The notes: generated from the sequence alone by a model not told the origin. A stretch of DNA of 64,000 nt from an uncultured bacterium (GCA_964554125.1 CAZKNG010000003.1:2971-66970), one strand, 5' to 3'. Positions 40,083 through 62,401 are shown, numbered from the stretch's first letter. Translations and numbers: made by a program.

Positions 40083-43681
<3,599 letters not shown>

Positions 43682-46183: not shown

Positions 46184-46219
46184 AAAAAAACCCCCGAAAG
46201 TTATAATAACTTCCGGGGG
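46184..46219 (-). terminator. Rho-independent terminator downstream of pilQ
   Basis: The minus strand has a 12-bp stem CCCCCGGAAGTT/AACTTTCGGGGG (1 mismatch) followed by TTTTTTTAT. Confidence 0.65.
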
Positions 46220-46244
46220 TACGACGGTAAGTGGAGGGGCAAAA

Positions 46245-48236
46245 TTATTCCACGATCGTCGGAGTAACGAAAATCACAAGTTCCTGTTTTTTCTTCGACT
46301 TTGAGGAGGATGAAAAAAGGGCGCCCAGATAAGGTATATCTTTCAAAAAAGGTATGCCTCTTCTTACACTCGTGTCAAGCTTCTTGATCAATCCGCCGAT
46401 AATTGCCGTTTCTCCGTTTGCAACTTCGACCCTCGTGTCAGCTTCAGCGGTAGCGATTATCACGCCGCCCTGCTGAGTTGACTCGGTCTGAAGCTCACTT
46501 ACCTCGGGATGGAGGTCAAGAGTGATGGTTCTGTCTTTATTTACGTGCGGAATAACTTTAAGCATTATTCCAATCTTTGTAAGCTCTGTTAAAGGGTTTC
46601 CGGCTTCATCCGCGACGATTAGAGGTATCTCTTTTCCAACCAGTATAGTGGCTTCCCTGTTTTCCATAGTGGTAATCCTGGGATTGGAGATTATATTTGC
46701 ATTATTTTTCTCTTCCATCATCTGAAGAATTGAATTAAGTTCTCCCCACGATTGAACACTGCCGATCTTGAGCGTCCCGCTTGTAAGGGGAAGGGCTTCA
46801 TCCACACCGGCACTTCCGATAGCGTTGACATCGGATTTATGAAGGTTCAGCAAATCCCACTTAATTCCAAGCTCGCGTTTCGCTTCAACATCCATCTCAA
46901 CCAGTTTAGCGTTGATATTAACTTGTACATGTTTAGTATCGAGTTCTTTTACAATCGCCGATACTTTATCAAGATTCTCTTCTATATCGTTAATAATCAA
47001 GGTGTTGCTTCCAGGATCAACATCGATTTTACCCCGTTTGCTTACTACATTCTTCAGGGCGTCACCGATCTCTTCCGCGCTTGAATTATCTACAAAAACA
47101 ACCCTCGTTTTCAGGGGAAGGAGATCCTTCTCTTTGTTCTTAGCACTTTTCTGATCAAGTTCTTGACGGAGCAAACGCTTACTTTCACCGACTCTTATCA
47201 TCCCGTACTCTTCCCTGTAACCGTATCCATGGGCTTTCAGAATAACTTCGAGAGCTTCCTGCCAGGGACAATCTTTTATATGAACAAAGACATCTCCCTC
47301 TACATCATCACCCGGAACGATATTAATATCGGCATAATGTGAAATTGTCTGAAGAACCGTTTTAATATCAGCCCCCTGGGCATCCAGAGTTATTCTTTTC
47401 GATCCCATAGGTATACCGGATCCAGCAGCCGGAGCTCCCCTGACATATGATTTTGACCAGGGAAGATTCTCAAACTTCACGCGCGGGGCGGAATTATTAA
47501 CATCTATTTCACTTCCTGAACTCGATATTACGGTTTGGTTTTCCGCGACGCGGCTTATATCCGCGGTATCACCACTGTTTTCTTTTTCGATCCAGGGAGA
47601 ATCAACCTCATCTTCATCCTTTTTGATATTTCTGTCAGCATCACTCCTGTTTTCTATTTTGTCATCGTCTGACAGATTAACCGCTGAATGATTCTCTTCT
47701 ATCACAGGTTTTATATTCTTTTCATTCTTATCTTCTGTTTCGGAAAGTTCCCGGACTTCACTTACGGGATCCGGAGCAGCAACACTATTTTCTGTTTTAC
47801 TGTCATTTAATGAAATATCAGCGTCATCAGCCCCGTTCGTATCAGAAATAAGCAGGACCTGTTTATTATTAATTTCGAAAATACGATGATTTACACTTTT
47901 TTTCAGGTCAAATACAAGTCTGCTTACAGGCACGGGGTCCGTTTTGAACTGGCTCGTTCTCACTCTGTATATCAACCGGGATTCGGTTTGATATGTAGAT
48001 TCATCCAACCTGTTTGCCGCGCCCACACAATCGACAACAAGCCTTTTCGGATCATCGGTAAAGAAAAGTTTGAATTCGATATCACCTGACTTGGCAATCT
48101 CGATTCTCAAATCTCCGTTTGCTTTCATGATCTGGAGGTTCTTAATTTCCCCCGCGGTGTCAGATGCCTCTAAAAGATTAATAGGGACAACAACCATAAC
48201 CAGTAATATCAATGTTAATTTGAGAAACTTCTGCAT
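46245..48236 (-). CDS. pilQ: Type IV pilus secretin PilQ
   Basis: It has a signal peptide, N-terminal AMIN-like domain, a long acidic linker and a C-terminal secretin domain (…RRGIPFLKDIPYLGALFSS…LVIFVTPTIV). The start is taken at MQKFLK (AAGGAG RBS 7 nt upstream) rather than the track's 48260. Confidence 0.85.
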   Translation of the reverse strand: MQKFLKLTLILLVMVVVPINLLEASDTAGEIKNLQIMKANGDLRIEIAKSGDIEFKLFFTDDPKRLVVDCVGAANRLDESTYQTESRLIYRVRTSQFKTDPVPVSRLVFDLKKSVNHRIFEINNKQVLLISDTNGADDADISLNDSKTENSVAAPDPVSEVRELSETEDKNEKNIKPVIEENHSAVNLSDDDKIENRSDADRNIKKDEDEVDSPWIEKENSGDTADISRVAENQTVISSSGSEIDVNNSAPRVKFENLPWSKSYVRGAPAAGSGIPMGSKRITLDAQGADIKTVLQTISHYADINIVPGDDVEGDVFVHIKDCPWQEALEVILKAHGYGYREEYGMIRVGESKRLLRQELDQKSAKNKEKDLLPLKTRVVFVDNSSAEEIGDALKNVVSKRGKIDVDPGSNTLIINDIEENLDKVSAIVKELDTKHVQVNINAKLVEMDVEAKRELGIKWDLLNLHKSDVNAIGSAGVDEALPLTSGTLKIGSVQSWGELNSILQMMEEKNNANIISNPRITTMENREATILVGKEIPLIVADEAGNPLTELTKIGIMLKVIPHVNKDRTITLDLHPEVSELQTESTQQGGVIIATAEADTRVEVANGETAIIGGLIKKLDTSVRRGIPFLKDIPYLGALFSSSSKSKKKQELVIFVTPTIVE

Positions 48237-48237
48237 C

Positions 48238-48711
48238 TTAATCTCCTTTTTCCTTCTCACCCTCTAGGTTCAGAGTTATACTGTTAGTTTGTCCGTACGA
48301 TCTTACTCGCGCTATCAGGGAACGTTCTGAAACGGAAACAATACTCCCATTCCTTATCGGATCCCCTACCTTTAATATATGACCAATTCCATTTCTGTCT
48401 TCGAGCATGGCGTATTTTTCCATTCCTCCGGAAAGCACACCAACCAGGCTGACCTTCTGGATATTAATAAGATCGGAGCTGCCTTCCTCAAAATCGCCGG
48501 ACACAAGGCTCTGAAAGGGGTCTCTGTGGTTAAACGCCTGATAATAATAATGTTTTGTTCTAAGATTATCCTGTCCGTCTCTCTTTTCCGCCGCAAAAGC
48601 TGTCTGGGGCAGCAGTAATCCCAGAAAAATTAAATAAACCGTTAATCTTTCCCATACCACTGAGGTATTATCAGGATTTGTCTTTATTCTTAACATCCGA
48701 AATCTCACCAC
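48238..48711 (-). CDS. pilP: PilP-like pilus assembly lipoprotein/periplasmic protein
   Basis: A ~150 aa signal-peptide protein located between pilO and pilQ. The assignment is by position and size. Confidence 0.5.
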   Translation of the reverse strand: MVRFRMLRIKTNPDNTSVVWERLTVYLIFLGLLLPQTAFAAEKRDGQDNLRTKHYYYQAFNHRDPFQSLVSGDFEEGSSDLINIQKVSLVGVLSGGMEKYAMLEDRNGIGHILKVGDPIRNGSIVSVSERSLIARVRSYGQTNSITLNLEGEKEKGD

Positions 48712-49288
48712 CTTTCAGAAGTGTATAGGCAGTCATCGTCATTTGCGCTTCAATTGTTCTGGTTTTTCCTACTCCACCGTCATCTTTATTATCAAAAGAG
48801 GATATTTCCATATCAGATACATTAACAATACGGTCCAGATTTGCCACTTTCGATAAAAATATGCCCACCTGGTGATATCTCCCCTTTACTCTTATATTTA
48901 TCGGATTTTCGGCAAAAAAGTCCTTTCTTATCCTCCGCTTAGGTTCGAAAAGGGTAAAATTAACACCTGCCTGATTTCCGGCCATCGTTATCTTTCTCAG
49001 CAATCCGGCTATCTCATCCTCTTCGGGCAGTAATTTAAGCGCAGCGACCCATTTCTCGTGCAATCTGTTGTATTCTGTCTCCAGCGCCTCAAGATTACCG
49101 ACAGTTTTTCTGGCTTTTTCGAGTTCTGTGCTTACCTTATCATATTCCCTCTTAAGCGATTCTTCCTTCGCCGCCCGCGGTTTGTATAAGAAAGGCATGA
49201 AAGAAGTAAAGAAATAAACATAGGCGATCATAGCCAGAAACATACCTATCACCATTGATTTTTGTACCTGTGGATCTTTTAAATCCAT
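48671..49288 (-). CDS. pilO: Type IV pilus assembly protein PilO
   Basis: 205 aa with a single N-terminal TM helix, a coiled-coil and a periplasmic domain. It follows pilN. Confidence 0.7.
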   Translation of the reverse strand: MDLKDPQVQKSMVIGMFLAMIAYVYFFTSFMPFLYKPRAAKEESLKREYDKVSTELEKARKTVGNLEALETEYNRLHEKWVAALKLLPEEDEIAGLLRKITMAGNQAGVNFTLFEPKRRIRKDFFAENPINIRVKGRYHQVGIFLSKVANLDRIVNVSDMEISSFDNKDDGGVGKTRTIEAQMTMTAYTLLKGGEISDVKNKDKS

Positions 49289-49306
49289 CGTTTCTACCTC
49301 TTTCCG

Positions 49307-49861
49307 TTATTGCGGTATTGCATTGCCCACTAAAGAAAACTTCATTACTTTATTATTGTGTATCGTCCCTTCCTCCACCACACTCAGATCTACCTTTGTA
49401 AATAAGGAAGATCTCTCCAGATTTGTCATCATATCCGCTACTTTGTAGTTGTTAAAAGTAATGCCGTCAATAGCATACTCTTTCGAAGAAAGCTCAGTTA
49501 TACCGGTAAGCCAGCAGTTTCCGGGGATTTTCATACTGATATCATTCAACAATCTTACCCTGAAGAACCGATATTTATCGAGCGAAGTAATAAGCTGGAG
49601 TCTTTTATTAACCTCTCCGCGCTCCTTTGTGATCTTCTTTATTTTTGCCAGTTGCGGAGCAAGCTTTCTGGATTCCTTACGAGCGGTTTTTATCTTTTCT
49701 TCAAGATCGGCTATCCTGTGGCCCTGTATAAAACTGAAAGCAAGTATGCCCCCTATGACAATTAAAACCACACCAACCATATATACCGACGACATATCGG
49801 GAAGATTGAAACTGCGTTTTTTATCCCTGTCCTCAGGTGGCAGCAGATTTATTCTAATCAT
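49307..49861 (-). CDS. pilN: Type IV pilus assembly protein PilN
   Basis: 184 aa. It begins MIRINLLP (the conserved PilN INLLP motif), followed by one TM helix. Confidence 0.8.
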   Translation of the reverse strand: MIRINLLPPEDRDKKRSFNLPDMSSVYMVGVVLIVIGGILAFSFIQGHRIADLEEKIKTARKESRKLAPQLAKIKKITKERGEVNKRLQLITSLDKYRFFRVRLLNDISMKIPGNCWLTGITELSSKEYAIDGITFNNYKVADMMTNLERSSLFTKVDLSVVEEGTIHNNKVMKFSLVGNAIPQ

Positions 49862-50934
49862 TATTCCCCCGCCTTTCTCAGAGCGAGACCAATGCCCACT
49901 GTAAGTAATGGCGCTATCTCGTTCAAATCCTCTCCATATTCAGTGAAAATCCCTTCATCAAAATCGATCTGGGAAAGAGGATTATGTATTAAAAATTCAA
50001 TGTCATGTTTATCCGAAAGTATTTCCTGTAAGAACGGAAGCCTCGCGCCCCCGCCGCTTAGAATAATTTTATCAATTTTATCCGCGTCACCGGCAGCCTT
50101 GAGGAAGGAAATACTCCGCTCTATTCCCAGAGACAGTTCTTTTGCCTTCTTTCTGAATATTTCCTTTACGGATTCCTCGTCTATATCACCGAGGTCACCT
50201 CTTACGACTCGCAACGCCTCTTCATAGTCGAGACCTTGTTCCTTCTGAAGCTCCTCGATAAAACTGCTGGTTCCCACACTGATATCTCTGGTAAAATGGG
50301 GGCTGTCGTTTTGAATTATATTTATATTGGTTACATCACTGCCGATATTTACAAGCCCTACAACTTCATCTTCCTCTTCTTCGCTTGAAGTGTAGTTTTC
50401 TTCAAAACTGTTCTGCAGGGCAAAAGAGTCAACATCAATAATCTCCGGGTTTAACCCAGCGTCTCTGATAAGTTCAGCGTAATCTGTAACCATATCTTTT
50501 TTAGCCGCAACCAGCAAAACTTCCATCTGATTGGCGCCGATATCTTCATCAAGTATTTGAAAATCAAGACATACATCGTCAATATCAAAAGGAACGTGCT
50601 GCTCAGCTTCCCAGAATATTGCTTCCGCGGCGTCTTCAGCTGTCATTTTGTCCATAACAATTTTTTTAACTATAACCGCGCGTCCTGATACGGCGGAGAC
50701 AACATTCTTCCCCGTGATCCCGGACTTATCGACGCATTCCGAAATAGTTTCTACCACGAGGTTCCTGTCCATAATTTCATCTTCCACGATTGCTTCCGGC
50801 AGGAGTTTGCTTATACCAAAATGGACTATCCTCGGTATCTGTTCAGAATGTTCTATTTCAACAACCTTAATCAAACTGGAACCAACATCAATACTGATCG
50901 TTGAAGGTTTTTTCTTAAATGGTAAAGATATCAT
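49861..50934 (-). CDS. pilM: Type IV pilus assembly protein PilM (actin-like ATPase fold)
   Basis: It has …IDVGSSLIKVVEIE… and an actin/FtsA-like fold. The start is taken at ATG 50934 (MISLPF, AAGGA RBS) rather than the track's TTG at 50976. Confidence 0.8.
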   Translation of the reverse strand: MISLPFKKKPSTISIDVGSSLIKVVEIEHSEQIPRIVHFGISKLLPEAIVEDEIMDRNLVVETISECVDKSGITGKNVVSAVSGRAVIVKKIVMDKMTAEDAAEAIFWEAEQHVPFDIDDVCLDFQILDEDIGANQMEVLLVAAKKDMVTDYAELIRDAGLNPEIIDVDSFALQNSFEENYTSSEEEEDEVVGLVNIGSDVTNINIIQNDSPHFTRDISVGTSSFIEELQKEQGLDYEEALRVVRGDLGDIDEESVKEIFRKKAKELSLGIERSISFLKAAGDADKIDKIILSGGGARLPFLQEILSDKHDIEFLIHNPLSQIDFDEGIFTEYGEDLNEIAPLLTVGIGLALRKAGE

Positions 50935-51040
50935 TCGCGCACCATCCTTTTTATACAAGGAAACTGTGCTTTCCAATACTGAATTTTTTCTTACATCTTT
51001 TGACTAACTGCACTTTTTAAATTCCAATCAAGTAGTGGTC

Positions 51041-51055
51041 GCAACATATGTGCCA
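51041..51055 (-). promoter_or_regulatory. Sigma-54 -24/-12 promoter upstream of pilM
   Basis: The minus strand reads TGGCAC-ATATG-TTGC, a perfect match to the consensus TGGCAC-N5-TTGC. It lies ~100 nt upstream of the pilM ATG. Confidence 0.6.
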
Positions 51056-51172
51056 AAGTTCTGAAATTAAAGTCTTCGTAAGGGTTTGAATTGCCGAGGG
51101 TTATCAAACAGGGCCTCTTAACCCTCAGTGAGAGAATTACACAATTGCAAGGTTTTTGTGCAAAGTGATAAA

Positions 51173-51946
51173 TTAATAAAAATTCAGAAAGTACCAGCTG
51201 ATAAAAAAATCCCCCAGTAGCAGACAGAGAATCCCCGCGGGCGCGAGGAACGATCCAAAAGGAACAGCTGTCCTGCCGGTCCCCCCTTTGCGTAAGAGGA
51301 AAATGCCATAAAGAGCTCCAAAGAATGAAGCGACAAGTATAACGGGTAACACAAGTCTTATTCCAAGAAACGCCCCTATCATGGCCATAAGTTTAACGTC
51401 CCCTCCACCCATACCCTCAGTCTTTCTAAAAGATTTATAAGTTAAACCCACAAGATAGAGAGAACCGCCTCCTGCTAAAGCGCCGTAGAAAGAACTCGAT
51501 AAAGCGATATCTGTACTTAAATAAGCCCATATGAAACCGATCAGTATAAACGGCAGACTGATCGAATCGGGTATGATTTTGTGCTCCCAGTCTATCAATG
51601 TAACGGCGATAAGGGACATAATAAACGGATATATAAATAATAGATCCAGGGTGAATCCCGAATAATAAAAACAGAGTAGGGCCAGAATCCCGCCAGAAAG
51701 CTCAATAAACGGATACCTCGGAGATATTTTCTTCCCGCAGCCGGCGCACTTCCCCTTAAGAAATATATAGCTTAAAAGGGGAATATTCTCGTACCACCTT
51801 AATACGCGCCGGCAGGCAGGGCAGGAAGACCTGGGGCGTATAACAGATCCGCCTCTGGGTACCCTGTATATAATCACGTTAAGAAAACTTCCGGCCGCGA
51901 GACCGGCGGTGAAAATGAATATTAACGCTACGGGATTCGTATTCAA
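51173..51946 (-). CDS. pilD: Prepilin peptidase (A24 family)
   Basis: 257 aa with the Cys-tetrad zinc region (SSCPACRRVL…CAGCGKKIS) and a polytopic membrane core. Confidence 0.85.
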   Translation of the reverse strand: MNTNPVALIFIFTAGLAAGSFLNVIIYRVPRGGSVIRPRSSCPACRRVLRWYENIPLLSYIFLKGKCAGCGKKISPRYPFIELSGGILALLCFYYSGFTLDLLFIYPFIMSLIAVTLIDWEHKIIPDSISLPFILIGFIWAYLSTDIALSSSFYGALAGGGSLYLVGLTYKSFRKTEGMGGGDVKLMAMIGAFLGIRLVLPVILVASFFGALYGIFLLRKGGTGRTAVPFGSFLAPAGILCLLLGDFFISWYFLNFY

Positions 51947-52614
51947 TCTTTTTCTTTCTTTGAAAGTTTCTTTTCAAGTTTTTCAATATAACCCGCTGCC
52001 AGATCATCCATGAAGGGATCGTTCGAGCTATCGGCCAGTCTTCTCCACATATTTATACTTGTTTCGACATCTCCGCCCCTGGCCGCGGCGCTCGCCGCGA
52101 AACGCATTGCCCGTTCATCGGCGCCGGGCATATCCGCGGCAAGTCTGAAATAGCGCTGAGATTCCTTATAATCATTCCCGTCGAGGTAATAGAGAAATCC
52201 TGCTTCGAAGGCCAGCGACCACTCCGCGGGATTATTTTCAATCCCTTTCCTTAGAATCTCAATCCCTTCCTCTAACTCCCCGAGGTCCTGAGCCATAATG
52301 ACAGCACTGAGTTTGTAAGCAAAGATAAACCGTGGATCGAGATCTGTTATTACATCGGCAAGATGGCGAAAGAGTCTCAAGCTGTTCTTTCCCATCCTGT
52401 AACCGCCGTAATACTGCACCGTCTTAAACCATAAAATATCTGAAACAATATTTCTGTAACCCAGAGAGAACATTCTTACCGCTTCACTCGAGGGAAGGTA
52501 CATGATATCGGCTTTTCTATTCCTGCCGCTTATTCCTTCCACACTCTTAGATACCCCCACAAGCAGCAGGGCAGCCGCTATTATAAACAGAGTATTTCTA
52601 AATAGTCCCTTCAT
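51943..52614 (-). CDS. TPR-repeat protein with signal peptide
   Basis: It has TPR-like helical repeats (…AFEAGFLYYLDGNDYKESQRYFRLAADM…). The start is taken at MKGLF. Confidence 0.6.
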   Translation of the reverse strand: MKGLFRNTLFIIAAALLLVGVSKSVEGISGRNRKADIMYLPSSEAVRMFSLGYRNIVSDILWFKTVQYYGGYRMGKNSLRLFRHLADVITDLDPRFIFAYKLSAVIMAQDLGELEEGIEILRKGIENNPAEWSLAFEAGFLYYLDGNDYKESQRYFRLAADMPGADERAMRFAASAAARGGDVETSINMWRRLADSSNDPFMDDLAAGYIEKLEKKLSKKEKD

Positions 52615-52621
52615 ATCCTCT

Positions 52622-53392
52622 TTACACAAACTCTCTTTTTCGGAAAATAAAACAGGAGAAATATATAATAACAGAGCAATAAACGATCGCGTAACCTACT
52701 GTGATCATAATATCTGAATACTGAAAATTCATTCCGTGGACCGCTTCATGACGCAGATTGAAAAGATTGAGATTCGGCAGGATATAATAGAAAGCATCTA
52801 CGATAAATTTCATCGCCTGTGAACCGAATTTCTCAGCGAAAACACGCAGATCGCCGCTCAAACTTCCGGCGACAAAGATACACAGAGTGAAAAAGAATGT
52901 CAGAATAGGGGACGTAAATGTGCTGAATAATATTACAATCGAAGTTATAACGGCCATTTCAAGAAGAGAAAGGAAGATGGCGGCGAGTATCCCCGCCGTT
53001 ATACTGCCTCCGCTTAGTACAACAACAACAACCGTTACCGCGGCCATAATGATAACCATCATTGTAAGAGCGGCCATTATACCAGAAAACTTCCCGATAA
53101 GATATTCCAGCCGCGTGACAGGTCTTGTAAAAATCATATATACAGCTCTTTTGTCTACTTCCTTGTGCAGAAGTGTGCTTCCGGAGACAACCGCTGTAAA
53201 AATGCCGAAAAGTGAAATAAACGCCAACGCCACGTCTGTTATTATCTTATCCTTTGCCGCGCCGACAGAAAGGGGAGAAAGTATATATGTGCTGATAATC
53301 AGGATCACTCCGAAAAAAAGGACTATATAGAGGAGTTTGCCCCTGATTAATTCGCGGAATGTATTAAACGCTATATTTGCTATTCTTTCCAT
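52622..53392 (-). CDS. ABC-2 type transporter permease (PilI-like position in the pilus cluster)
   Basis: It is polytopic with 6 predicted TM segments. The start is taken at MERIANIAF, which has a perfect GGAGG RBS 6 nt upstream. Confidence 0.7.
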   Translation of the reverse strand: MERIANIAFNTFRELIRGKLLYIVLFFGVILIISTYILSPLSVGAAKDKIITDVALAFISLFGIFTAVVSGSTLLHKEVDKRAVYMIFTRPVTRLEYLIGKFSGIMAALTMMVIIMAAVTVVVVVLSGGSITAGILAAIFLSLLEMAVITSIVILFSTFTSPILTFFFTLCIFVAGSLSGDLRVFAEKFGSQAMKFIVDAFYYILPNLNLFNLRHEAVHGMNFQYSDIMITVGYAIVYCSVIIYFSCFIFRKREFV

Positions 53393-53420
53393 AACTTTCC
53401 TCCGCGTTTCCATAGAGATA

Positions 53421-54401
53421 CTAAATCGAACTTTCAACCCGGGCTTTATCAGAGTCAACCGCGGATTTTATCTCCTTATCCTGTTCTGTGATCTCATTTA
53501 CAAAGATCTCTTCCAGAGAGTATTTAACGGAAGCAACCTTGATTATCTCAGAGCCTTTATTTAATAAATACTGCAGGACACTCCGTGTATATTCCTGCTT
53601 TTTTACAACCAGAAAGATCTTATCGCCCACTCTCTTTACAGAATCCGTATATTGAGCCACAATCTTCTCCCCGTCACGCGGAAACGCTTGCGCTGTTATA
53701 TCAAGCTTTCCCTTCCCAATCCTGAAAAGTTCATCGAGCCCGGCATCTTTTACTATCTTCCCCTTACGGATAATACAAACCCTGTCGCAAAGAGTCTCCA
53801 TATCGGAGAGTATATGCGATGAGAAAAATATCGTTTTACCCTTCTTTTTAAGCTCAAGAAGAAAATCCCTGGTCATTTTTCTTCCCATGGGATCAAGTCC
53901 GGAGAATGGTTCGTCAAGTATCAGCAGATCCGGATCATGAATTACAGCCTGAGCAAGCCCGGCTCGCTGCAGCATACCCTTTGAAAAACCGCTCAATCTT
54001 TTTTTCCCGTCTCCCGCCAGACCTACCCTGCTTATGACCTTCATTATGCTGTCATTTAATTCTTCTCCGCCGATACCGCTCATCTTCCCGCAAAACTTAA
54101 GGAATTCCTCGAGCGTGAGGTGCGGATAAAAGAATGGGTTTTCAGGTAGAAAACCTACCGCTCTTTTCGTATGAGTATCCGAGATAGATCTGCCTAGCAC
54201 ACTGACATTTCCCGAATCAGGTTTTATGAGCCCGAGAATAATCTTTATCGTGGTTGTTTTTCCCGCTCCGTTAGGTCCAAGAAATCCGAGAATCTCTCCC
54301 TCGCCGGCGGAAAAGGAGATGCCACGTAGAACCCTGCTCTTCTTGAGCATAAAATTACCCCGGAAGGTTTTTACTATATCTTCGACACTTAGAATCTTCA
54401 T
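53421..54401 (-). CDS. ABC transporter ATP-binding protein (PilH-like position in the pilus cluster)
   Basis: It has Walker A (GPNGAGKTT), an ABC signature (LSGFSKGMLQR) and Walker B (LLILDEP). The start is taken at MKILSVEDIV (AGGTGG RBS) rather than the track's 54449. Confidence 0.85.
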   Translation of the reverse strand: MKILSVEDIVKTFRGNFMLKKSRVLRGISFSAGEGEILGFLGPNGAGKTTTIKIILGLIKPDSGNVSVLGRSISDTHTKRAVGFLPENPFFYPHLTLEEFLKFCGKMSGIGGEELNDSIMKVISRVGLAGDGKKRLSGFSKGMLQRAGLAQAVIHDPDLLILDEPFSGLDPMGRKMTRDFLLELKKKGKTIFFSSHILSDMETLCDRVCIIRKGKIVKDAGLDELFRIGKGKLDITAQAFPRDGEKIVAQYTDSVKRVGDKIFLVVKKQEYTRSVLQYLLNKGSEIIKVASVKYSLEEIFVNEITEQDKEIKSAVDSDKARVESSI

Positions 54402-54565
54402 AAATTTAAACCACCTGTAGATCTCTCTTCCGGATGGCCCCGGAGCCATATTAAACTCTAAATAAATACCTGACGCATAAAATCTTTACATCCACAATTA
54501 AAACCCGGCAAATATTCTGCCTTTAAGAGGTACTTTCTTAACATTTTTTTCTCTATTGCATTTAT

Positions 54566-54581
54566 TGCAGATATTATGCCA
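54566..54581 (-). promoter_or_regulatory. Sigma-54-like -24/-12 promoter upstream of the ABC transporter genes
   Basis: The minus strand reads TGGCAT-AATAT-CTGCA (GG-N10-GC spacing is correct, but the -12 element is CTGC rather than TTGC). Confidence 0.4.
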
Positions 54582-54712
54582 AAGTGGGCCTATAGTGTAA
54601 AGGGGTGTCACCTTATGAAAAGGGGCACCCTTGTTAGTTTATATTTCTTCCTGTAAGTTCCGGTAACCAAACTATTTTAAGGCTGAAGGTGTGTAAAATT
54701 CGTTAATAGAAT

Positions 54713-55891
54713 TTACAAAAAGCGATTCTGTACTTTTTCAACAGCACCCCGGAGAGTACAGACTGATACACCGCCTGCAATTGGATATCCCTCATCTACA
54801 GGAGAAACAATCAAGCACTCATCCAGTTTAAGATCTTTCTTTGCATTCCAGAATCCCCTGGTGACCTGCGGCGAAGTTGACGCCTTACACTCTATGCCTA
54901 TAGTACGATTTTGCCTCGAAACAACCAGATCAATCTCCGCTCCGGCTGAAGTACGATAAAACCCGAAACTACAGTTTTTTATGTTTGAGAGAATATTTTC
55001 TATGACAATCCCTTCCCAGGATGCGCCGAACACGGGATGCCCGAGTAATTGATTGAAATCACATATTTCAAGAAGTGAATTCAGTATCCCGGAATCTCTT
55101 ATATAAACTTTCGGCGATTTTACCAGACGTTTTTTTACATTGCTGATAAACGGGGGAAGGACTCGAATCATAAATGATTTTGTCAGTATATCAAGATAAC
55201 GTTTCACTGTCGTGTGGCTCATCCCCAAAGATTGTCCAAGTTTGCTGGTATTTAGAATATGACCGTGATAATGCGCCAGCATTTGCCATAGACGCTCCAT
55301 GGTAGTTGAAGGAATCTTAAATCCGAGTTGAGGTATATCTCTTTCCAGAAAAGTACGGATGAATTCTTCTCGCCACCTTAACGAAGCGTCCTCGGTCTGC
55401 CTGAGGAAACTTAGCGGAAATCCTCCCCTTAACCAGAGAGGTTGCAATGAGTTGTAACTGGCGTTGGCGGTAACCTCCCAGCATAGAAAAGGTGTTAATT
55501 CCAAATAGGCAATTCGTCCGGCGAGGGTTTCAGATGACTGCCGAATAAGATCCCGCGAGGCAGACCCCAGGATAAGGAACTGCCCGGTTGTATCATTTTC
55601 ATCAATAATACTCCTCAGAAAGGGGAACAGCTCTGGGGTCCGTTGAATTTCATCCAGGCAGAATACTTTTTCCGGATTCGATTTGAAGAATAATTCGGGA
55701 TCAGATAATTTACGCAGATCGGAAGGCCTTTCCAGATCCAGGTAATATGCCCCGGGATCTGTTCTAAGAAAATGTTTGGCCAGAGTAGATTTTCCAACCT
55801 GCCTGGGTCCCAGAATAACAACAGCCGGAAATTCTTTCATATAGCGCCCAAGATCCGACTGGAGTTGCCGTGGTATATATTTACCTTGCAT
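54713..55891 (-). CDS. AAA+ superfamily ATPase with DUF4143-type C-terminal domain (COG1373-like)
   Basis: 392 aa with Walker A (LGPRQVGKST) and a C-terminal restriction-endonuclease-like fold region that is typical of DUF4143 proteins. Confidence 0.65.
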   Translation of the reverse strand: MQGKYIPRQLQSDLGRYMKEFPAVVILGPRQVGKSTLAKHFLRTDPGAYYLDLERPSDLRKLSDPELFFKSNPEKVFCLDEIQRTPELFPFLRSIIDENDTTGQFLILGSASRDLIRQSSETLAGRIAYLELTPFLCWEVTANASYNSLQPLWLRGGFPLSFLRQTEDASLRWREEFIRTFLERDIPQLGFKIPSTTMERLWQMLAHYHGHILNTSKLGQSLGMSHTTVKRYLDILTKSFMIRVLPPFISNVKKRLVKSPKVYIRDSGILNSLLEICDFNQLLGHPVFGASWEGIVIENILSNIKNCSFGFYRTSAGAEIDLVVSRQNRTIGIECKASTSPQVTRGFWNAKKDLKLDECLIVSPVDEGYPIAGGVSVCTLRGAVEKVQNRFL

Positions 55892-56174
55892 ATTGAATAC
55901 CTCGCGTTCATATTACATGATAGAATACAATATACTTACTTGAAAAGCAAACTTTATTTTAGGGGCGGGCATGGATTTCTGATCCGCCCCGAACAGAACG
56001 ATCAGAAAGAACGAATCATAGGCTTATAAAACGCAGTTTTTCCGCGGTGGAAAGAGGCCGCGCCTCTGACAATGCCGGTCAGCGGATAGAAACCCTGCCG
56101 ATTTTATGGGATCATTAGAAGTCTTTTTGTAAAGTGCTGACAAACAGGCATGCTGCCGGCTTTGTAGCCATAAA

Positions 56175-56204
56175 TCAAAAACGGGCGGCCCGTGTGAGCC
56201 GCCC
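56175..56204 (-). terminator. Rho-independent terminator downstream of pilA
   Basis: The minus strand reads GGGCGGC-TCACACG-GCCGCCC followed by TTTTTGATTT. It lies ~30 nt after the pilA stop. Confidence 0.65.
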
Positions 56205-56230
56205 GCAGCAATGCTAAACTTTGCTCTTTC

Positions 56231-56665
56231 TTACTGTCCGCTCGTTAATGTAATTACCAGTTCTCCGGCATCTTCACCGCAGCCGGTAATAGTATAACCC
56301 ATTGAAGTTCCTGAAGCGTTTGTGGTATCATCGTAACCTGTCTGGCCAGCTGTGGCGGCAGTTCCATCCACCGGTTCCGTGGCAGCGTTGGTAAATGGAT
56401 TTGACAGGCTAGTACCGCCGGGCAACAAATCAACCAAATCTTCGCCATTCGAAAGGGTAGTTGATAGATCTGCAGCATATACTCCGTTATTCTGTACGGC
56501 AAAATCTTCGGCCGCCAGCTGAACTGTATGGCAGTTTGACTTAACCGAAGCCTCTTTCGCTCTCGACTGCATACTGATAAAGTTAGGAATAGCAATCGCG
56601 GCTAAAATACCGATAATCACAACAACGATCATAAGCTCAATCAGCGTAAAACCCTTGTTATTCAT
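56231..56665 (-). CDS. pilA: Type IVa major pilin PilA
   Basis: 144 aa. The N-terminus MNNKGFTLIELMIVVVIIGILAAIAIPNF is the class III signal peptide (G|FTLIE), with C-terminal Cys residues. It has a GGAGG RBS. Confidence 0.9.
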   Translation of the reverse strand: MNNKGFTLIELMIVVVIIGILAAIAIPNFISMQSRAKEASVKSNCHTVQLAAEDFAVQNNGVYAADLSTTLSNGEDLVDLLPGGTSLSNPFTNAATEPVDGTAATAGQTGYDDTTNASGTSMGYTITGCGEDAGELVITLTSGQ

Positions 56666-56785
56666 TCTGCACCTCCTTTAGGTACTTAAACTCAAAGCTT
56701 ACACTTTGAAAATCAAAACCTTACGGCTGTTAAAACCGTCGAAACTCTTTTTTCTAAGACCTCTTACGGTCTCCTTTTTAGTAAT

Positions 56786-56801
56786 GGGCAATTTATATGC
56801 C
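56786..56801 (-). promoter_or_regulatory. Sigma-54 (RpoN) -24/-12 promoter upstream of pilA
   Basis: The minus strand reads TGGCAT-ATAAA-TTGCC (GG-N10-GC). It lies ~120 nt upstream of the pilA ATG and downstream of a palindrome AACGTTA-N15-TAACGTT (56821-56849). PilR next door is a sigma-54 activator. Confidence 0.6.
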
Positions 56802-56927
56802 AAAGAGCACGCGGGATCCATAAACGTTAATCCTTTGTCTCATATAACGTTATACCAGCACCGCGGTTAATACGTATTACCGTGGATTGTAAATTGCCAT
56901 TTCGCACTCCAGCTATGCAACGGTTCA

Positions 56928-58310
56928 TTATTCCGACCCCACCTTCTGTCCTTCACGGCTCAGTCCGTAACGCTGGATTTTCCGGTAAAGTGTTGACGCG
57001 TTGATCCCTAATATCTCACTGGCCTTCTTCTTCTGCCATCCCGTTTCATCGAGAACTGAGATGACATACTCCTTTTCAAGCTCCTCGAGAGTTATCTTCT
57101 CCCTGTCTAAACTCAGCTTCCTTTTACTTCTCGAATGAAAACGTATCTTGTCCGGCAGGTCATGGGGTTTTATTGTATCACCCTCCTGGAGTACAATGGC
57201 CCGTTCAATTATATTTTCCAGTTCACGTACATTCCCGGGCCAATCGTAATTTACCATCAGTTCCAGCGCTTTGTCTGAAATTGTCTTTTTTCTTTTTGAT
57301 TTTTCAGATGCCATCTTAAGAAAATGTTCGACAAGAAGAGGTATGTCACTCGACCTGTGCTTGAGCAGAGGAATCTTTATAGGTATAACGTTCAAACGGT
57401 AATAAAGATCCGGACGGAAATTGCCCGCACGCACCTCTTCTTCGAGATCCGCGTTGGTTGCCGCGATTAAACGCACATTTACTTTTATGGGACTTGTCCC
57501 GCCAACAGGTACTATTTCTCTTTCCTGAAGAACCCTCAGCAGCTTAACCTGAATCGCAGGTGATGTTTCCCCGACTTCATCGAGAAAAAATGTCCCCCCG
57601 CATGCCACCCTGAACAATCCATCCTTGTCTCTGATCGCTCCGGTAAAGCTCCCCTTGACATGTCCGAAAAGCTCACTTTCAAGAAGATTCTCCGGCAGAG
57701 CCCCGCAGTTAATGGAAACAAAGGGTTTATCAGACCTGTTGCTTTCATGGTGAATTGACTTTGCTACAAGCTCCTTTCCCGTTCCACTCCTCCCTCTTAT
57801 AAGAATAGTACTGTCGGTGGCGGCAACCTTTTTTACCCTCTGAAAAACCTTCTGCATCGGTTCACTCTCACCTATAATATTCTTATAACTGTCCTTTTTT
57901 CTCTGCTTCTTATTTATATAGGCATTTTCATTACTGGTTCTACGCGCCTCAACCGCGTTATGAACTATCATCTTTATTTCATCATTCTTTGCCGCCCTTT
58001 TAACCATATAGTGAAAAGCGCCTTTATTAAGAGCGTCAATCGCTGTCTTCTGTGAAGCGTAAGCGGTCATAATTATGACGGGAAGGTTCGGCTTGTGGCT
58101 TTTCACAGCTGAGAGAACTTCAATGCCGTCAATCCCCTTCATTTTTATATCGGTCATAACGGCGTCATATTCCGCCTTCTTTATCTCCGATATGGCTTGC
58201 TTACCGCTGCTGACCGTTTTAACCTTATACCCTTCCTTCTTGAGCATTATTGAAAGGTATTTACACATACTCTTTTCATCATCAACTATTAATACTCTCT
58301 CGCCTGCCAT
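56928..58310 (-). CDS. pilR: Sigma-54-dependent response regulator PilR (NtrC family)
   Basis: 460 aa with a receiver domain (LIVDDE…D), an AAA+ sigma-54 activation domain (GESGTGKE-like GRSGTGKELVA; ESELFGH; GAFTGA-like GSFTGA) and a C-terminal HTH. Confidence 0.85.
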   Translation of the reverse strand: MAGERVLIVDDEKSMCKYLSIMLKKEGYKVKTVSSGKQAISEIKKAEYDAVMTDIKMKGIDGIEVLSAVKSHKPNLPVIIMTAYASQKTAIDALNKGAFHYMVKRAAKNDEIKMIVHNAVEARRTSNENAYINKKQRKKDSYKNIIGESEPMQKVFQRVKKVAATDSTILIRGRSGTGKELVAKSIHHESNRSDKPFVSINCGALPENLLESELFGHVKGSFTGAIRDKDGLFRVACGGTFFLDEVGETSPAIQVKLLRVLQEREIVPVGGTSPIKVNVRLIAATNADLEEEVRAGNFRPDLYYRLNVIPIKIPLLKHRSSDIPLLVEHFLKMASEKSKRKKTISDKALELMVNYDWPGNVRELENIIERAIVLQEGDTIKPHDLPDKIRFHSRSKRKLSLDREKITLEELEKEYVISVLDETGWQKKKASEILGINASTLYRKIQRYGLSREGQKVGSE

Positions 58311-58313
58311 TAA

Positions 58314-60056
58314 TCAAAACCTCCCGCATTCTATGCTGCTAAGTTCATGTTTAACCTCTTCGATTCCTATTCTTCCTCTTTTATCCTCAACCGGAATCAG
58401 AATCCTGAACGTTACTCCTTCTTTCAAATTTTCAGCACTTATCGATCCTGAATGACTTTCGATAATCCTCCCGGCAGTAGCAAGACCTAATCCCGTGCCG
58501 CCGTCCTTAGTTGTAAAGAAAGGTTCAAAGATATGTTCCAGTACATCATCGGGTATTCGCGGACCGTCATTTGTAAATTCTATTTCCGCGTACCTGGTTT
58601 TATCACTGCCTTCTTCGAGCACGTCTTCAACTACTCTGACTCTGATATAGATACTGCCGTCTCTTCGAACAGCTTCACACGCGTTGAGTCCCAGATTGAG
58701 AAAGACCTGCCTGATCTGTTCATCATCGGCATAAATCCTCACTCCTTCAACATCGCTTTCGAAGGTGATATCAGCTCCTCTGTGGAGATAGGATCCGTGC
58801 TTTAAAAGAAGAATTGTTTCTTTCAGACAGTTCTCTATATCTATAGAGTCAAATTCCGGTTTCCGGAGTCTCGCGTATTCAAGAAAATCGGTAATCATTC
58901 CATCGAGCCTGTCTGACTCGCGAATAATCAGATCCATAAGTTCACCGTTCTCTCCGGTAACATCGAGTTCATCCTTGAGCATTTCGGTCGACCCGCATAT
59001 AGACGCGAGAGGCGCCCGGATCTCATGCGCGATTGCCGCAGAAAGCTCTCCAACAGCAGCCATTCTGTCTGATCTTCTTATTTTATCTCTCATCCTGTTT
59101 ACTTCGGTTAAATCCTGAAACAGGGCTACAACACCTTTCTTCTCGTCGACTTCATTTTTCAGAAGTGAAATATTTATACCTATGGGCAATCTTCTCCCAT
59201 CACTCCCTGAAAGTGTTATTTCACCCCTGTTTCGCTGAACTCCGGTTTCCATAACAAGCATCAACTGCTTGAATAGAGGAGTCATTCCCGGAACGATCTC
59301 TTCAAAATGCTTACCCTCGGCAACCACGTTTTTCTCAACTTCCAGGATCCTCCTGGCCGCCGGGTTCATCGAAACAATACAGCCGTCTAAATCTATGACA
59401 ACCAGACCGCTGCTCATATTATTTACAATAGAATCATTATTCAGCTGTATCCTCTTTATCTCTTTTTCCCTGTCGGCCAGTTCCTTTCCGCTTCTTTTTA
59501 CTCTTTTAGAAAAATATCCGCTTATCAGCCCAGTGGAAACGAATACCCCCATATGTATGTATCCTCTAAGTAATGAATCAAAAAGATTCTGCCGCGTAAA
59601 GATGAGCGCCCCCTCCGGAGATCTTACATGACCGCTGATTTCGAGAAGACTGTAGACAATATAAGCCGAGGCCGCTACGAGCGAAGTAACCAATCCTCCC
59701 GAGACGCCAAAATACAACCCGCCTACAAAAATTGGAAGTATATAAAGTATAGAGAAGATTGAGCCGGAACCGCCGCTGTAGTGAACAATAAGTGTCAGAA
59801 CAGCAAGATCAATACCTATCAGAAGACGAATCAGTTTGTTGAATGAAACTCCCTTTCCATGCGCAATATAAACCGCTCCCGTACCCAGATATACCACACC
59901 GAGAAGGCTGTAAAGGGCAATGGCTGACAGTTCTCTGCTTTGAAACTGCAGGGCAATAATAGCCGCTCCTACTATCAGTGTTGCCACAACAATTCTGATA
60001 TAGACTATGTTTCTTATCTTTTCATCATCCCGGTAAGCACGCGGTATAAAATTCAT
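58314..60056 (-). CDS. pilS: Sensor histidine kinase PilS
   Basis: 580 aa with an N-terminal multi-TM domain, a PAS-like region, a HisKA domain (AAIAHEIRAPL) and a HATPase_c domain (GTGLGLA). Confidence 0.8.
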   Translation of the reverse strand: MNFIPRAYRDDEKIRNIVYIRIVVATLIVGAAIIALQFQSRELSAIALYSLLGVVYLGTGAVYIAHGKGVSFNKLIRLLIGIDLAVLTLIVHYSGGSGSIFSILYILPIFVGGLYFGVSGGLVTSLVAASAYIVYSLLEISGHVRSPEGALIFTRQNLFDSLLRGYIHMGVFVSTGLISGYFSKRVKRSGKELADREKEIKRIQLNNDSIVNNMSSGLVVIDLDGCIVSMNPAARRILEVEKNVVAEGKHFEEIVPGMTPLFKQLMLVMETGVQRNRGEITLSGSDGRRLPIGINISLLKNEVDEKKGVVALFQDLTEVNRMRDKIRRSDRMAAVGELSAAIAHEIRAPLASICGSTEMLKDELDVTGENGELMDLIIRESDRLDGMITDFLEYARLRKPEFDSIDIENCLKETILLLKHGSYLHRGADITFESDVEGVRIYADDEQIRQVFLNLGLNACEAVRRDGSIYIRVRVVEDVLEEGSDKTRYAEIEFTNDGPRIPDDVLEHIFEPFFTTKDGGTGLGLATAGRIIESHSGSISAENLKEGVTFRILIPVEDKRGRIGIEEVKHELSSIECGRF

Positions 60057-60079: not shown

Positions 60080-61291
60080 CTAACCTCCGGAAACAACAGA
60101 AATCAATTTAAACATAGGCAGATACATCGATATCAACATTCCTCCAACAATAACTCCCATTACAACAATCATAATAGGTTCTATAGCGGCGGTAAGAGCA
60201 TCTACAGCACTATCTACTTCTTCATCGTAAAAATCGGCTATCTTCTCCAGCATTTCATCGAGAGCACCCGTCTGTTCACCAACACTGATCATTTGAACCA
60301 CCATGGGAGGGAAAACTCCACTCCGTTTAAGCGGTTCGGCGATAGTATTACCCTCGCTGATACTTTCTTTCGTCTTGACAACCGCACTTTCTATGACCTT
60401 GTTGCCGGCTGTTTTAGCGGTTATATCAAGCCCGTCAATAATAGGCACACCGCTGGCAGTGAGAGTACCGAGAGTCCTGGTAAACATCGCAACCGCGCCC
60501 TTTCTTATCACTGCCCCGAGTATGGGTAAATTCAGCAGAAACCGGTCAATTCTCATTTTCCCCTTTTCTGTGCTGTTATATTTCTTAATACCAAAATATA
60601 GTCCAATTCCCGCCCCCAGAAGCAGATACCAGTTAACTCTGAGAAAATCGCTCAACCCCATTACAATTTGTGTCGGCAGAGGGAGAGCACCTCCAAAATC
60701 AACGAACATCTTGGCAAAGGTCGGAATAATAAACATAAGCATAAAAATCGTTGCGCCACCCGCGACAATCATAACTATTGTCGGATATGTCAAAGCTCCT
60801 TTTATTTTACGCCTCAGCGAATCCTGCTTTTCAAGGAAAAGGGCTAATCTATTAAGAATAAGATCCAGGATTCCTCCCGATTCACCGGCGTCTACCATAT
60901 TCACAAACAACTCACTGAAACATTTATGTTTTGACAGAGCCTCGGCTAACGTGGAACCCGATTCAACATCTTCCATAACTTCTGTTACAATTTCTCTGAA
61001 ATTATCCTTTTCCAGCTGGCTTGATAGAATATCGAGGCATTGAACGAGGGGCAGTCCGGCATTAATCATGGTCGCGAACTGACGGGTAAAAATTCCAAGG
61101 TCTTTAATTCCGATCTTCTTCTTGAACCCGAAATCAATATTCAGATCTTTGGGTTTCTGCCTGACCTGAGTAAGAATGATCTTCTTTTTCCGAAGATGAC
61201 TGGTAAGCTCGATCTTGTTTTCAGCTTGATACTCTCCGGAAACATCCTCACCGGCGGGTGTCCTTCCCTTCCATAAATAAGTTGTAGCCAT
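60080..61291 (-). CDS. pilC: Type IV pilus inner-membrane platform protein PilC (GspF family)
   Basis: 403 aa with two GspF-type repeats and 3 TM segments. Confidence 0.85.
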   Translation of the reverse strand: MATTYLWKGRTPAGEDVSGEYQAENKIELTSHLRKKKIILTQVRQKPKDLNIDFGFKKKIGIKDLGIFTRQFATMINAGLPLVQCLDILSSQLEKDNFREIVTEVMEDVESGSTLAEALSKHKCFSELFVNMVDAGESGGILDLILNRLALFLEKQDSLRRKIKGALTYPTIVMIVAGGATIFMLMFIIPTFAKMFVDFGGALPLPTQIVMGLSDFLRVNWYLLLGAGIGLYFGIKKYNSTEKGKMRIDRFLLNLPILGAVIRKGAVAMFTRTLGTLTASGVPIIDGLDITAKTAGNKVIESAVVKTKESISEGNTIAEPLKRSGVFPPMVVQMISVGEQTGALDEMLEKIADFYDEEVDSAVDALTAAIEPIMIVVMGVIVGGMLISMYLPMFKLISVVSGG

Positions 61292-61312: not shown

Positions 61313-62401
61313 TTATTTCCTCATCTGATAGTTTCTTCTTGTATTCTTCTCTCCAAACATCTGTTTAAGCTCTATCGTATCGGGGCTTCTCCTCAGGGCT
61401 TCATTTCTGGCTATTTTCCGGGCAACAGCCGCTCTGTAAAGCGCCTGATTCATTGTCTGCATTCCATGCTTCTGCCCCGCCTGCATAAGCCCGTATATCT
61501 GATGAACCTTGTCATCTCTGATTGTCGCGCTTATTGCCGGAGTGCAAACCATAACTTCAGCCACAAGTACTCTTCCCCTTCCGGATATATGAGGAATAAG
61601 CTGCTGTGTAACAACACCTTTTAAGACAAAAGCCAACTGAGCTCTTACCTGTGACTGCTGAGTCGGAGGGAAATTATCAATTATTCTATTAATAGATTCG
61701 AAGGTGGAGTTTGTATGCAGGGTCGCGAAAGCAAGATGTCCCGTTTCAGCTATTGTCAAAGCGGCCTGCATCGTTTCCCGGTCTCTCATCTCTCCTATTA
61801 GTATTACATCCGGATCCTGACGCAGCACATGCTTAAGTGCCTGAGCAAATGTCTCAGTATCCGCTTTTACTTCCCTCTGATTAACTATACATTTTTTATG
61901 TTTATGTATATATTCGATTGGATCTTCTATTGTAATTACATGCTCTGAGCGTTCACTGTTTATCTTATCAATTATACTGGCAAGGGATGTTGATTTTCCG
62001 CTTCCCGTCGGACCTGTTACCAGAATTAATCCTTTCCTCGATTCAGCAAAATCCTTTACTACGGGCGGAAGACCCAGAGTTTTAAAATCAAGTATTTCAT
62101 ATGGGATTTTCCTGATGGCAATACTTGTTACTCCCCGCTGCTGGTAGACATTCGCCCTAAACCGTGAGAGTCCCTGAATACCAAACGAGAAGTCGAGTTC
62201 CTTGTTATTTTCATATCTCTTCTGTTGATCTTCAGTTAACACACTGTACGCGATCTGTTTGGAAATATCCGGAGTAACAGCATCATACGCGGACGGCACA
62301 ATCTTACCGTCTATTCTGAGAACAGGCGGAGCGCCCGCCGTAATGTGCAGGTCGCTTGCTTTCTTTTCGATCATTTCCTGAAGCAGTGTTCTGAGATTCA
62401 A
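61313..62401 (-). CDS. pilT: Twitching motility retraction ATPase PilT
   Basis: 362 aa with Walker A (GPTGSGKST) and the PilT-type AIRKIPYE and GMQTMNQ motifs. Confidence 0.85.
   Translation of the reverse strand: MNLRTLLQEMIEKKASDLHITAGAPPVLRIDGKIVPSAYDAVTPDISKQIAYSVLTEDQQKRYENNKELDFSFGIQGLSRFRANVYQQRGVTSIAIRKIPYEILDFKTLGLPPVVKDFAESRKGLILVTGPTGSGKSTSLASIIDKINSERSEHVITIEDPIEYIHKHKKCIVNQREVKADTETFAQALKHVLRQDPDVILIGEMRDRETMQAALTIAETGHLAFATLHTNSTFESINRIIDNFPPTQQSQVRAQLAFVLKGVVTQQLIPHISGRGRVLVAEVMVCTPAISATIRDDKVHQIYGLMQAGQKHGMQTMNQALYRAAVARKIARNEALRRSPDTIELKQMFGEKNTRRNYQMRK

Follow-up and report, generated by a model that had tools for sequence, protein, structure and literature searches.

Conserved sigma-54-type promoter motifs in the type IVa pilus gene cluster of an uncultured bacterium

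A 64,000-nt stretch of DNA from an uncultured bacterium (GCA_964554125.1, CAZKNG010000003.1:2971-66970; the whole stretch is called the window below) contains a contiguous type IVa pilus (T4aP) gene cluster. In this study, we found three -24/-12 motifs of the sigma-54 type in the cluster, in front of the pilin gene pilA, an operon of ABC transporter genes and the prepilin peptidase gene (ABC-pilD), and the operon pilMNOPQ. We regard all three as genuine sigma-54-type promoters on the strength of their sequence and conservation; those of pilM and pilA are very well supported and that of the ABC operon somewhat less so. The downstream half of the cluster probably consists of three enhancer-dependent sigma-54 units, activated most likely by the response regulator PilR through conserved upstream blocks.

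Sigma-54-type motifs in the window

All three motifs (Table 1) are intergenic and on the coding (minus) strand; the distance to the downstream start codon is about 95 nt for pilM, 154 nt for the ABC ATPase gene, and 111 nt for pilA. At each site, exactly 10 nt separate the GG and GC dinucleotides, the context resembles TGGCAC-N5-TTGCW, and the full sequences (TGGCACATATGTTGC, TGGCATATAAATTGC, and TGGCATAATATCTGC) match the consensus at 10, 9, and 9 of 11 positions. In the pilA promoter, the -24 GG is located at 56801-56800 and the -12 GC at 56789-56788. The same motifs had been read in an earlier note on this DNA, which gave exact coordinates for the pilM and ABC sites and placed the pilA site one position too low (56786-56801 instead of 56787-56802).

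The pattern TGGCAY-N5-YTGC had exactly three matches in the 64 kb, both strands included, against 0.20 expected, and none of 100 shuffled sequences reached three. This pattern was generalized only after the sites had been seen, and a looser score that kept GG and GC fixed and required 9 or more of the 11 consensus positions showed no enrichment, with four matches observed and about four expected in the window. For both reasons, the window alone gives moderate statistical support; since the looser score is not enriched, position, strand, and conservation across genomes are the stronger evidence.

Conservation among related loci

A PilM-based scan, with one genome retained per species, yielded 68 syntenic loci (1.03 Mb), all from metagenome-assembled genomes labelled Latescibacterota, Krumholzibacteriota, or "uncultured", with GC contents of 42-73% and PilM identities of 45-79%. 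Gene order was mapped by tblastn with the window proteins, and the order pilT-C-S-R, at least one pilin gene, ABC-ABC-TPR-pilD, pilM-N-O-P-Q, rsmD, and coaD was common to all loci. In its strict form, the motif had 160 matches in the 1.03 Mb, of which 159 were on the coding strand and 153 at the same three places (pilM, first pilin gene, and ABC genes). It was present upstream of pilM in every locus having upstream sequence (66/66), and between pilR and the first pilin gene in 43 of 44 loci; of 53 loci, 44 had it ahead of the ABC ATPase gene, and most of the remaining ABC cases kept a relaxed GG-N10-GC form. The same pilA and pilM promoters were found in a second, independent set of metagenome contigs collected with PilA. 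One locus, L069 (Ga0102934_1005709), has the same sequence as the window. The 120 PilM homologues among the matches listed (59-98% identity) seem to belong to this clade, the source names given there being Krumholzibacteria/Krumholzibacteriota or an unclassified "bacterium".

Each promoter class has its own consensus: TGGCAYrCATGTTGCg (TGGCAYRCATGTTGCG) for pilM, TGGCAcggcCATTGCa for pilA, and TGGCAYc..c.TTGCAa for the ABC operon. At the ABC position, about 40 of the more distant loci have TGGCAY-N5-TTGCAA, and closer relatives lacking the strict motif carry nGG(C/T)AYGAAATCTGCA directly after the pilA terminator with the GG-N10-GC register kept. The GG-N10-GC arrangement is seen, for example, in TGGCATGATTTCTGC of L002, TGGCACAGTTTCTGC of L005, and GGTACGAAATCTGCA of further loci from the subclade to which the window belongs. 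In alignments of the pilD-pilM (A1) and pilR-pilA (A2) regions, the promoter forms an island of invariant columns amid diverged intergenic DNA, and the main islands of conservation are the promoter itself and a single block upstream. The earlier proposal that these motifs are sigma-54 promoters thus gains support, as their position, strand, and GG-N10-GC register are kept in dozens of divergent genomes and their flanks are not.

The pilM promoter has additional conserved features. Its 5-nt spacer, RCATG, is nearly invariant over 42-73% GC, and CTCAAG at about -33 and CCGA at about -14 before TGGCA are strongly conserved in the loci of higher GC content (L010-L068). Such constraint is stronger than expected from recognition by sigma-54 alone.

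Upstream blocks and the likely activator

Candidate enhancers were identified upstream of the pilA and pilM promoters. The pilA block starts 8 nt beyond the stop codon of pilR and forms a conserved island in alignment A2, with invariant TTGC and GC.A columns. The pilM block begins 2 nt after the pilD stop codon, is the sole conserved island besides the promoter in alignment A1, and reads GGCAYTTTGCAY-N7-TTGCAW in relatives. A search for 4-mer dyads recovered only TGCA-N9-TGCA at pilM, where it occurs in 8 of 11 close relatives (background, 0.02). The element GGCA-N3-TGCA is found at -113 to -116 of the pilM promoter in 6 of the 11 close relatives and at -107 to -113 upstream of pilA in most of the more distant loci; of its 88 occurrences in 1.09 Mb, 22 lie before pilA promoters in the interval -120 to -101, and another 6 lie before pilM promoters in the interval -120 to -111. 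The main argument for a common activator, PilR being the simplest choice, is the GGCA-N3-TGCA core shared by pilA and pilM. No conserved block was detected within 260 nt upstream of the ABC promoter in the loci compared, because this promoter abuts the pilin stop codon or terminator in most genomes.

Two other candidates were rejected. The sequence TTGCA-N9-TGCRAARTG, common to the pilA and pilM blocks of the window, has a second half that is unconserved at pilA in relatives, and an enrichment of gapped pairs was discarded since most of it came from conserved coding sequence in the 3'-terminal parts of pilR, pilD, and the pilin gene.

The PilR protein has the full NtrC-family architecture (REC, Sigma54_activat with E = 1.6e-71, AAA_lid, and HTH_8), including the sigma-54 contact loop GSFTGA within ELFGHVKGSFTGA. 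The order pilS-pilR-promoter-pilA is the same in the window and in relatives. In the mechanism we propose, sigma-54 RNA polymerase would wait at the three sites in a closed complex, unable to open the DNA alone, until an upstream AAA+ activator contacts it through the GSFTGA loop and hydrolyses ATP, allowing transcription to start. The most likely activator would be PilR phosphorylated by the membrane kinase PilS; bound to the blocks 86-118 nt upstream of TGG at pilA and pilM, it would loop to the polymerase and promote the open complex. The resulting units would be pilA alone, up to its terminator; ABC-ABC-TPR-pilD; and pilMNOPQ, up to its terminator. The ABC promoter would depend either on distant use of the pilA enhancer or on another activator. 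The sequence data establish the motifs, their conservation, the gene content, and the domains of PilR, and from these we infer which sigma factor and activator are used, where transcription starts, and where proteins bind; as activator, PilR is inferred at pilA, plausible at pilM, and unsupported at the ABC operon.

Several observations weigh against this interpretation. The -12 element of the ABC site is CTGC, which is weaker than TTGC; its -24 element often reads GGTAC (T for C) in the window's subclade; and a sigma-70-like sequence with an extended TG (TTTACA-17-CATAAT, 54573-54601 on the minus strand, 10 of 12 matches) overlaps the -24 half of the motif in this genome. The ABC site is less well supported for these three reasons. 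In the window itself, both copies of the block core are imperfect, reading GGCAATTTACA at pilA and ATCACTTTGCA at pilM, and more distant relatives have a different block, GGCA-N5-TGCC, upstream of pilM; because of this difference, a single activator for pilA and pilM is not proven. Additionally, no terminator was detected after pilR or pilD in the terminator scan, and read-through past these genes could add to pilA and pilM expression. Finally, no rpoN match to Pfam was found among the large open reading frames of the window, nor an RpoN box in six-frame translations of 1.5 Mb of loci, an outcome that is uninformative; the presence of sigma-54 is thus deduced only from the sigma-54 interaction domain of PilR.

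The alternative that survives best is that all three promoters use sigma-54 but answer to separate activators, PilR acting only at pilA and enhancer-binding proteins encoded elsewhere driving ABC-pilD and pilMNOPQ. The missing PilR-like block at the ABC promoter, the conserved spacer and flanks peculiar to each promoter class, and the difference between GGCA-N5-TGCC at pilM in distant relatives and GGCA-N3-TGCA at pilA would fit such an arrangement. However, the pilM block of the window's subclade has the GGCA-N3-TGCA core at nearly the same distance as the pilA blocks elsewhere, both motif forms occasionally occur at both promoter classes, and a second activator gene is absent from the cluster in every locus. 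We therefore consider separate activators somewhat unlikely and prefer PilR as the common activator.

Inverted repeats in the promoter spacers

The perfect inverted repeat AACGTTA-N15-TAACGTT lies 20 nt upstream of the -24 element of pilA, spanning -49 to -21 from TGG with its centre about 35 nt from TGG. The earlier note had read this palindrome correctly, two positions too low (56821-56849), and had proposed it as a PilR site. Relative to the predicted start, it lies at about -75 to -47, inside the looping spacer and short of the distance typical of NtrC-family enhancers, which is about 80-150 nt upstream of the start site. Perfect arms of at least 7 bp with loops of 9-23 nt appear in about 3% of shuffled 68-nt spacers; the palindrome is unusual but not extreme by this measure. 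Its sequence is absent from the relatives with a pilA upstream region (L003, L006, L008, L071-L073, L079, L080, and others), except the identical L069.

A second repeat, GAGGGTTA-N15-TAACCCTC, is located 40 nt upstream of the pilM -24 element and has the GTTA-N15-TAAC core and the loop length of the pilA palindrome. The core occurs three times in 64 kb (0.69 expected), the third time inside the coding sequence of the ABC permease. The palindrome motif had been suggested as something to look for at other promoters, and this look-alike does occur at pilM; it is absent from the nearest relatives (L001-L008), being specific to this genome, and is either a coincidence or a site for a genome-specific factor.

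These features bear on the reading of the palindrome as the PilR enhancer of pilA, with the GTTA-N15-TAAC repeat serving pilM likewise. The perfection of the repeat and the presence of its counterpart at pilM would speak for this, and Jin et al. reportedly found in 1994 that Pseudomonas PilR binds as near as about -40. Nevertheless, neither repeat is kept in relatives other than L069, though PilR is 64-80% identical there; the palindrome is centred nearer to the promoter than typical enhancers, with conserved blocks available at about -90 to -120; and pilM spacers as a class have no excess of inverted repeats. An enhancer role for the palindrome is therefore very doubtful, and the conserved GGCA/TGCA blocks appear to be the better candidates.

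Inverted repeats do recur at the position of the palindrome in pilA promoters. Counting perfect arms of at least 7 bp with loops of 9-23 nt between -80 and -12, we found them in 20% of 70 non-redundant promoters, compared with 3% of shuffles and 6% of adjacent 5' untranslated regions (5'UTRs). The arms differ by lineage: AACGTTA/TAACGTT in the window, TTTACAGGG/CCCTGTAAA in L071-L073, and GTAACC/GGTTAC, GTAAGT/ACTTAC, or ATAACG/CGTTAT in other lineages. PilR is an unlikely reader of these repeats because its helix-turn-helix is well conserved and the arm sequences are so different. The looping spacer is where architectural proteins act at other sigma-54 promoters, and our best guess is that the palindrome may be the site of an architectural or secondary, lineage-specific factor rather than the primary PilR enhancer.

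Two further explanations were examined and set aside. As a pilR terminator, the palindrome would have an AT-rich 7-bp stem and a 15-nt loop with no T-run, whereas the real terminators here are GC-rich with T-runs. The IHF consensus WATCAANNNNTTR was sought in pilA and pilM spacers, and its CAA-N4-TTR cores occur in a few relatives and not in the window, which is not significant.

The ABC-pilD promoter

In most relatives, no more than a few tens of nucleotides separate the ABC-pilD promoter from the stop codon or terminator of the pilin gene. Being close to the pilin end and having no block of its own, it could be fired by the PilR oligomer bound upstream of pilA, reaching over the pilin gene and the terminator behind it, so that one PilR enhancer would serve two tandem sigma-54 promoters; in this genome, an insertion (see below) makes the distance from the pilA enhancer to the ABC promoter 2.3 kb. 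The repeats in the pilA spacer, recurrent but variable in sequence, could moreover be operators co-evolving with a second regulator specific to the lineage, or could form cruciforms or bends that take the place of IHF in this phylum. We think this combined reading unlikely.

It is highly improbable that the ABC motif is instead a sigma-70 promoter (TTTACA-17-TGgCATAAT) or a chance match, with ABC-pilD read by the housekeeping polymerase: the overlapping 10/12 site with its extended TG, the CTGC at -12, the missing activator block, and the unenriched looser score favour it, but it is GG-N10-GC and not the sigma-70 hexamers that is kept across loci (L002, L005, about 40 distant loci, and the window's subclade), the sigma-70-like sequence is confined to this genome, and sigma-70-like matches in the region are at chance level (32 against 31.8 expected).

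The inverted repeat TGTAAA-N14-TTTACA (54692-54717) precedes the ABC promoter by 111-136 nt, a distance typical of enhancers. Its overlap with the stop codon of the DUF4143 insertion means that it cannot be ancestral.

Organization of the cluster

Gene calls placed all genes from 42 to 64 kb of the window on the minus strand, and Pfam matches gave a contiguous T4aP cluster of the Myxococcus/Geobacter type in the order pilB-T-C-S-R, pilA, ABC-ABC-TPR-pilD, and pilM-N-O-P-Q (Table 1). The pilP gene had a weak Pfam match only. The ABC ATPase is a generic ABC-2/GldA-like protein, with its best NCBIfam match GldA-like and under the family cutoff. In L010-L068, the start of this ATPase seems to lie farther upstream, at a conserved GGAGGTGGACGTTGA... 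85-100 nt past the ABC promoter, which would give an N-terminal extension missing from the window protein. No second pilS2/pilR2 pair was found in the cluster.

The genes pilB-T-C-S-R are packed with gaps of 3-27 nt and are presumably transcribed from upstream of pilB, beyond the window edge. The window scan found no -24/-12 motif in front of pilT, pilC, pilS, or pilR. The suggestion that the whole machinery is under this control is thus overstated and would apply to pilA, ABC-pilD, and pilMNOPQ only.

Table 1. Positions of genes, predicted promoters, and other elements of the pilus cluster, counted from the first letter of the window.
Feature	Coordinates	Strand	Remarks
pilB	62429-63985	-	Pfam
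pilT	61313-62401	-	Pfam
pilC	60080-61291	-	Pfam
pilS	58314-60056	-	PAS-HisKA-HATPase sensor kinase; PilS-type membrane-domain match weak
pilR	56928-58310	-	REC + sigma-54 AAA+ with GSFTGA + HTH_8 response regulator
Candidate pilA enhancer (upstream activator site)	56888-56920	-	TTGCAT-N16-GGCAATTTACA; -118 to -86 from TGG
AACGTTA-N15-TAACGTT	56823-56851		Perfect inverted repeat; spacer between upstream block and pilA promoter
Predicted pilA sigma-54 promoter	56802-56787	-	TGGCAT-ATAAA-TTGCC; predicted start ~56776, 5'UTR ~111 nt
pilA	56231-56665	-	N-methyl pilin
pilA intrinsic terminator	56206-56181	-	Strong
AAA_14/DUF4143 ATPase gene	54713-55891	-	Pfam
Predicted ABC-pilD sigma-54 promoter	54581-54566	-	TGGCAT-AATAT-CTGCA; predicted start ~54555
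ABC-pilD operon	51173-54401	-	Genes overlap or abut
ABC ATPase	53421-54401	-	Likely start codon 54401
ABC-2 permease	52622-53458	-	
228-aa protein	51943-52629	-	Membrane-anchored; TPR matches weak
pilD prepilin peptidase	51173-51946	-	
Candidate pilM enhancer	51143-51170	-	ATCACTTTGCAC-N7-TTGCAAT in window; about -114 to -87 from TGG
GAGGGTTA-N15-TAACCCTC	51096-51126		Inverted repeat; 40 nt upstream of pilM -24; 8-bp arms
Predicted pilM sigma-54 promoter	51055-51041	-	TGGCAC-ATATG-TTGC; predicted start ~51029
pilM-pilN-pilO-pilP-pilQ operon	46190-50934	-	Terminator included; pilM ATG 50934; pilQ to 46245
pilQ terminator	46220-46190	-	Strong, intrinsic

The DUF4143 gene, which also has a weak HTH_11 match, sits between the pilA terminator and the ABC promoter (flanks about 54600-56180). 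It is absent from all other related loci and carried only by L069, the sequence identical to the window. This gene is an insertion and lies outside the conserved cluster.

The leader regions contain several possible RNA features. In the pilA 5'UTR (about 56666-56776, minus strand), an invariant GCTTTG is located about 20 nt upstream of an invariant ribosome-binding site, AAGGAGGTG (alignments A2 and A3). Most relatives have CAAAGC ahead of this GCTTTG, which makes a hairpin possible. A putative ACGG...CCGT hairpin lies farther upstream. RNAalifold applied to the pilA 5'UTR returned only an invariant pairing of GCUUU with GGAGG that showed no covariation, so a translational switch in this leader is a guess; the hairpins spotted by eye are not established. 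The 5'UTR of the ABC operon has a terminator-like hairpin, GGCAGAATATTTGCC then GGGTTTTAAT (54507-54521, minus strand), with no obvious conservation in L002; it could attenuate transcription. An Rfam scan of 50800-57000 gave no match at E <= 1.

A few kilobases from the pilus cluster, beside a gene for an aromatic amino acid lyase, a full-length serpin is encoded at 40032-41315 on the plus strand (Pfam Serpin, E = 5e-109). Serpins are uncommon in bacteria.

Pilus regulation in other bacteria

Control of pilA by sigma-54 and PilR is classical, and in Myxococcus xanthus, Wu and Kaiser reportedly showed in 1997 that pilA is sigma-54-dependent. As in M. xanthus, the T4aP genes of the window are contiguous (pilB-T-C-S-R-A, pilD, and pilMNOPQ, with an ABC transporter embedded among them), and a gene for a PilR-type sigma-54 activator lies directly upstream of pilA. 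The window differs in the conserved -24/-12 motifs also present at ABC-pilD and pilMNOPQ, for which we know of no counterpart reported in M. xanthus. The window also has no pilS2/pilR2, and its ABC genes are in the order ATPase, permease, and TPR-like protein. Their resemblance to PilGHI, described with the layout of the Myxococcus pil cluster (PMC6060248), is by context only, the ATPase being of the generic type noted above.

In Geobacter sulfurreducens, pilR is immediately upstream of the sigma-54-dependent pilA (PMC2725144). A genome-wide in silico survey, as summarised in PMC6058289, predicted PilR sites with sigma-54 promoters at 54 loci, many upstream of genes for type IV pilus (T4P) biosynthesis; multi-target control of pilus biogenesis by sigma-54 and PilR was thus already proposed there. 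Our loci belong to a different phylum, and the support here comes from conservation across genomes, not expression data. In Xanthomonas oryzae, RpoN2-PilRX alters the expression of several T4P units including pilMNOPQ, and GG-N10-GC motifs lie upstream of most T4P units; RpoN2 was shown to bind directly only at the promoters of pilA, pilC, and pilR, and its influence on pilM was regarded as indirect (PMC7170775). The T4P genes of X. oryzae pv. oryzae are scattered over 13 units, whereas the pilM site here is near-consensus and conserved in 66 of 66 loci. The view expressed earlier on this DNA, that only pilA is so controlled in most models, is therefore outdated in the light of the Xanthomonas work (PMC7170775) and the Geobacter predictions (as summarised in PMC6058289).

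As in the window, the major pilin gene of Pseudomonas aeruginosa is served by a two-component kinase and a sigma-54 activator with upstream sites. In that species, pilA was the sole known direct PilR target until 2018, and the hallmarks of PilR sites are TGT-N11-AGA and GTCT elements (PMC6058289), which are unlike the GGCA/TGCA blocks or the AACGTT palindrome of the window. The blocks are closer in form to the LuxO site, TTGCAW3TGCAA, found in one or two copies about 90-120 nt before the start at the qrr sigma-54 promoters (PMC11443567): both have the palindromic form GCA-N3-TGC at a similar distance. This likeness is in form only: gene context points to a PilR-like protein here rather than LuxO, and the blocks are candidate sites whose window copies deviate.

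Taken together, these comparisons place the finding within a regulatory scheme already known. It adds a well-conserved case from an uncultured phylum and does not represent a novel type of regulation. The general picture is unchanged because control beyond pilA has already been reported or predicted in Xanthomonas and Geobacter.

Conclusions

If the promoters work as proposed, pilus production in this uncultured phylum would be fully conditional: an enhancer-binding protein would be required not for the pilin alone but also for the prepilin peptidase, an accessory ABC transporter, the alignment complex, and the secretin. A simple regulon is thereby proposed for Krumholzibacteriota/Latescibacterota, for which, to our knowledge, no genetics exist. 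In addition, the roughly 150 aligned natural sigma-54 promoters, drawn from genomes of 42-73% GC, may be useful for building promoter models outside Proteobacteria.

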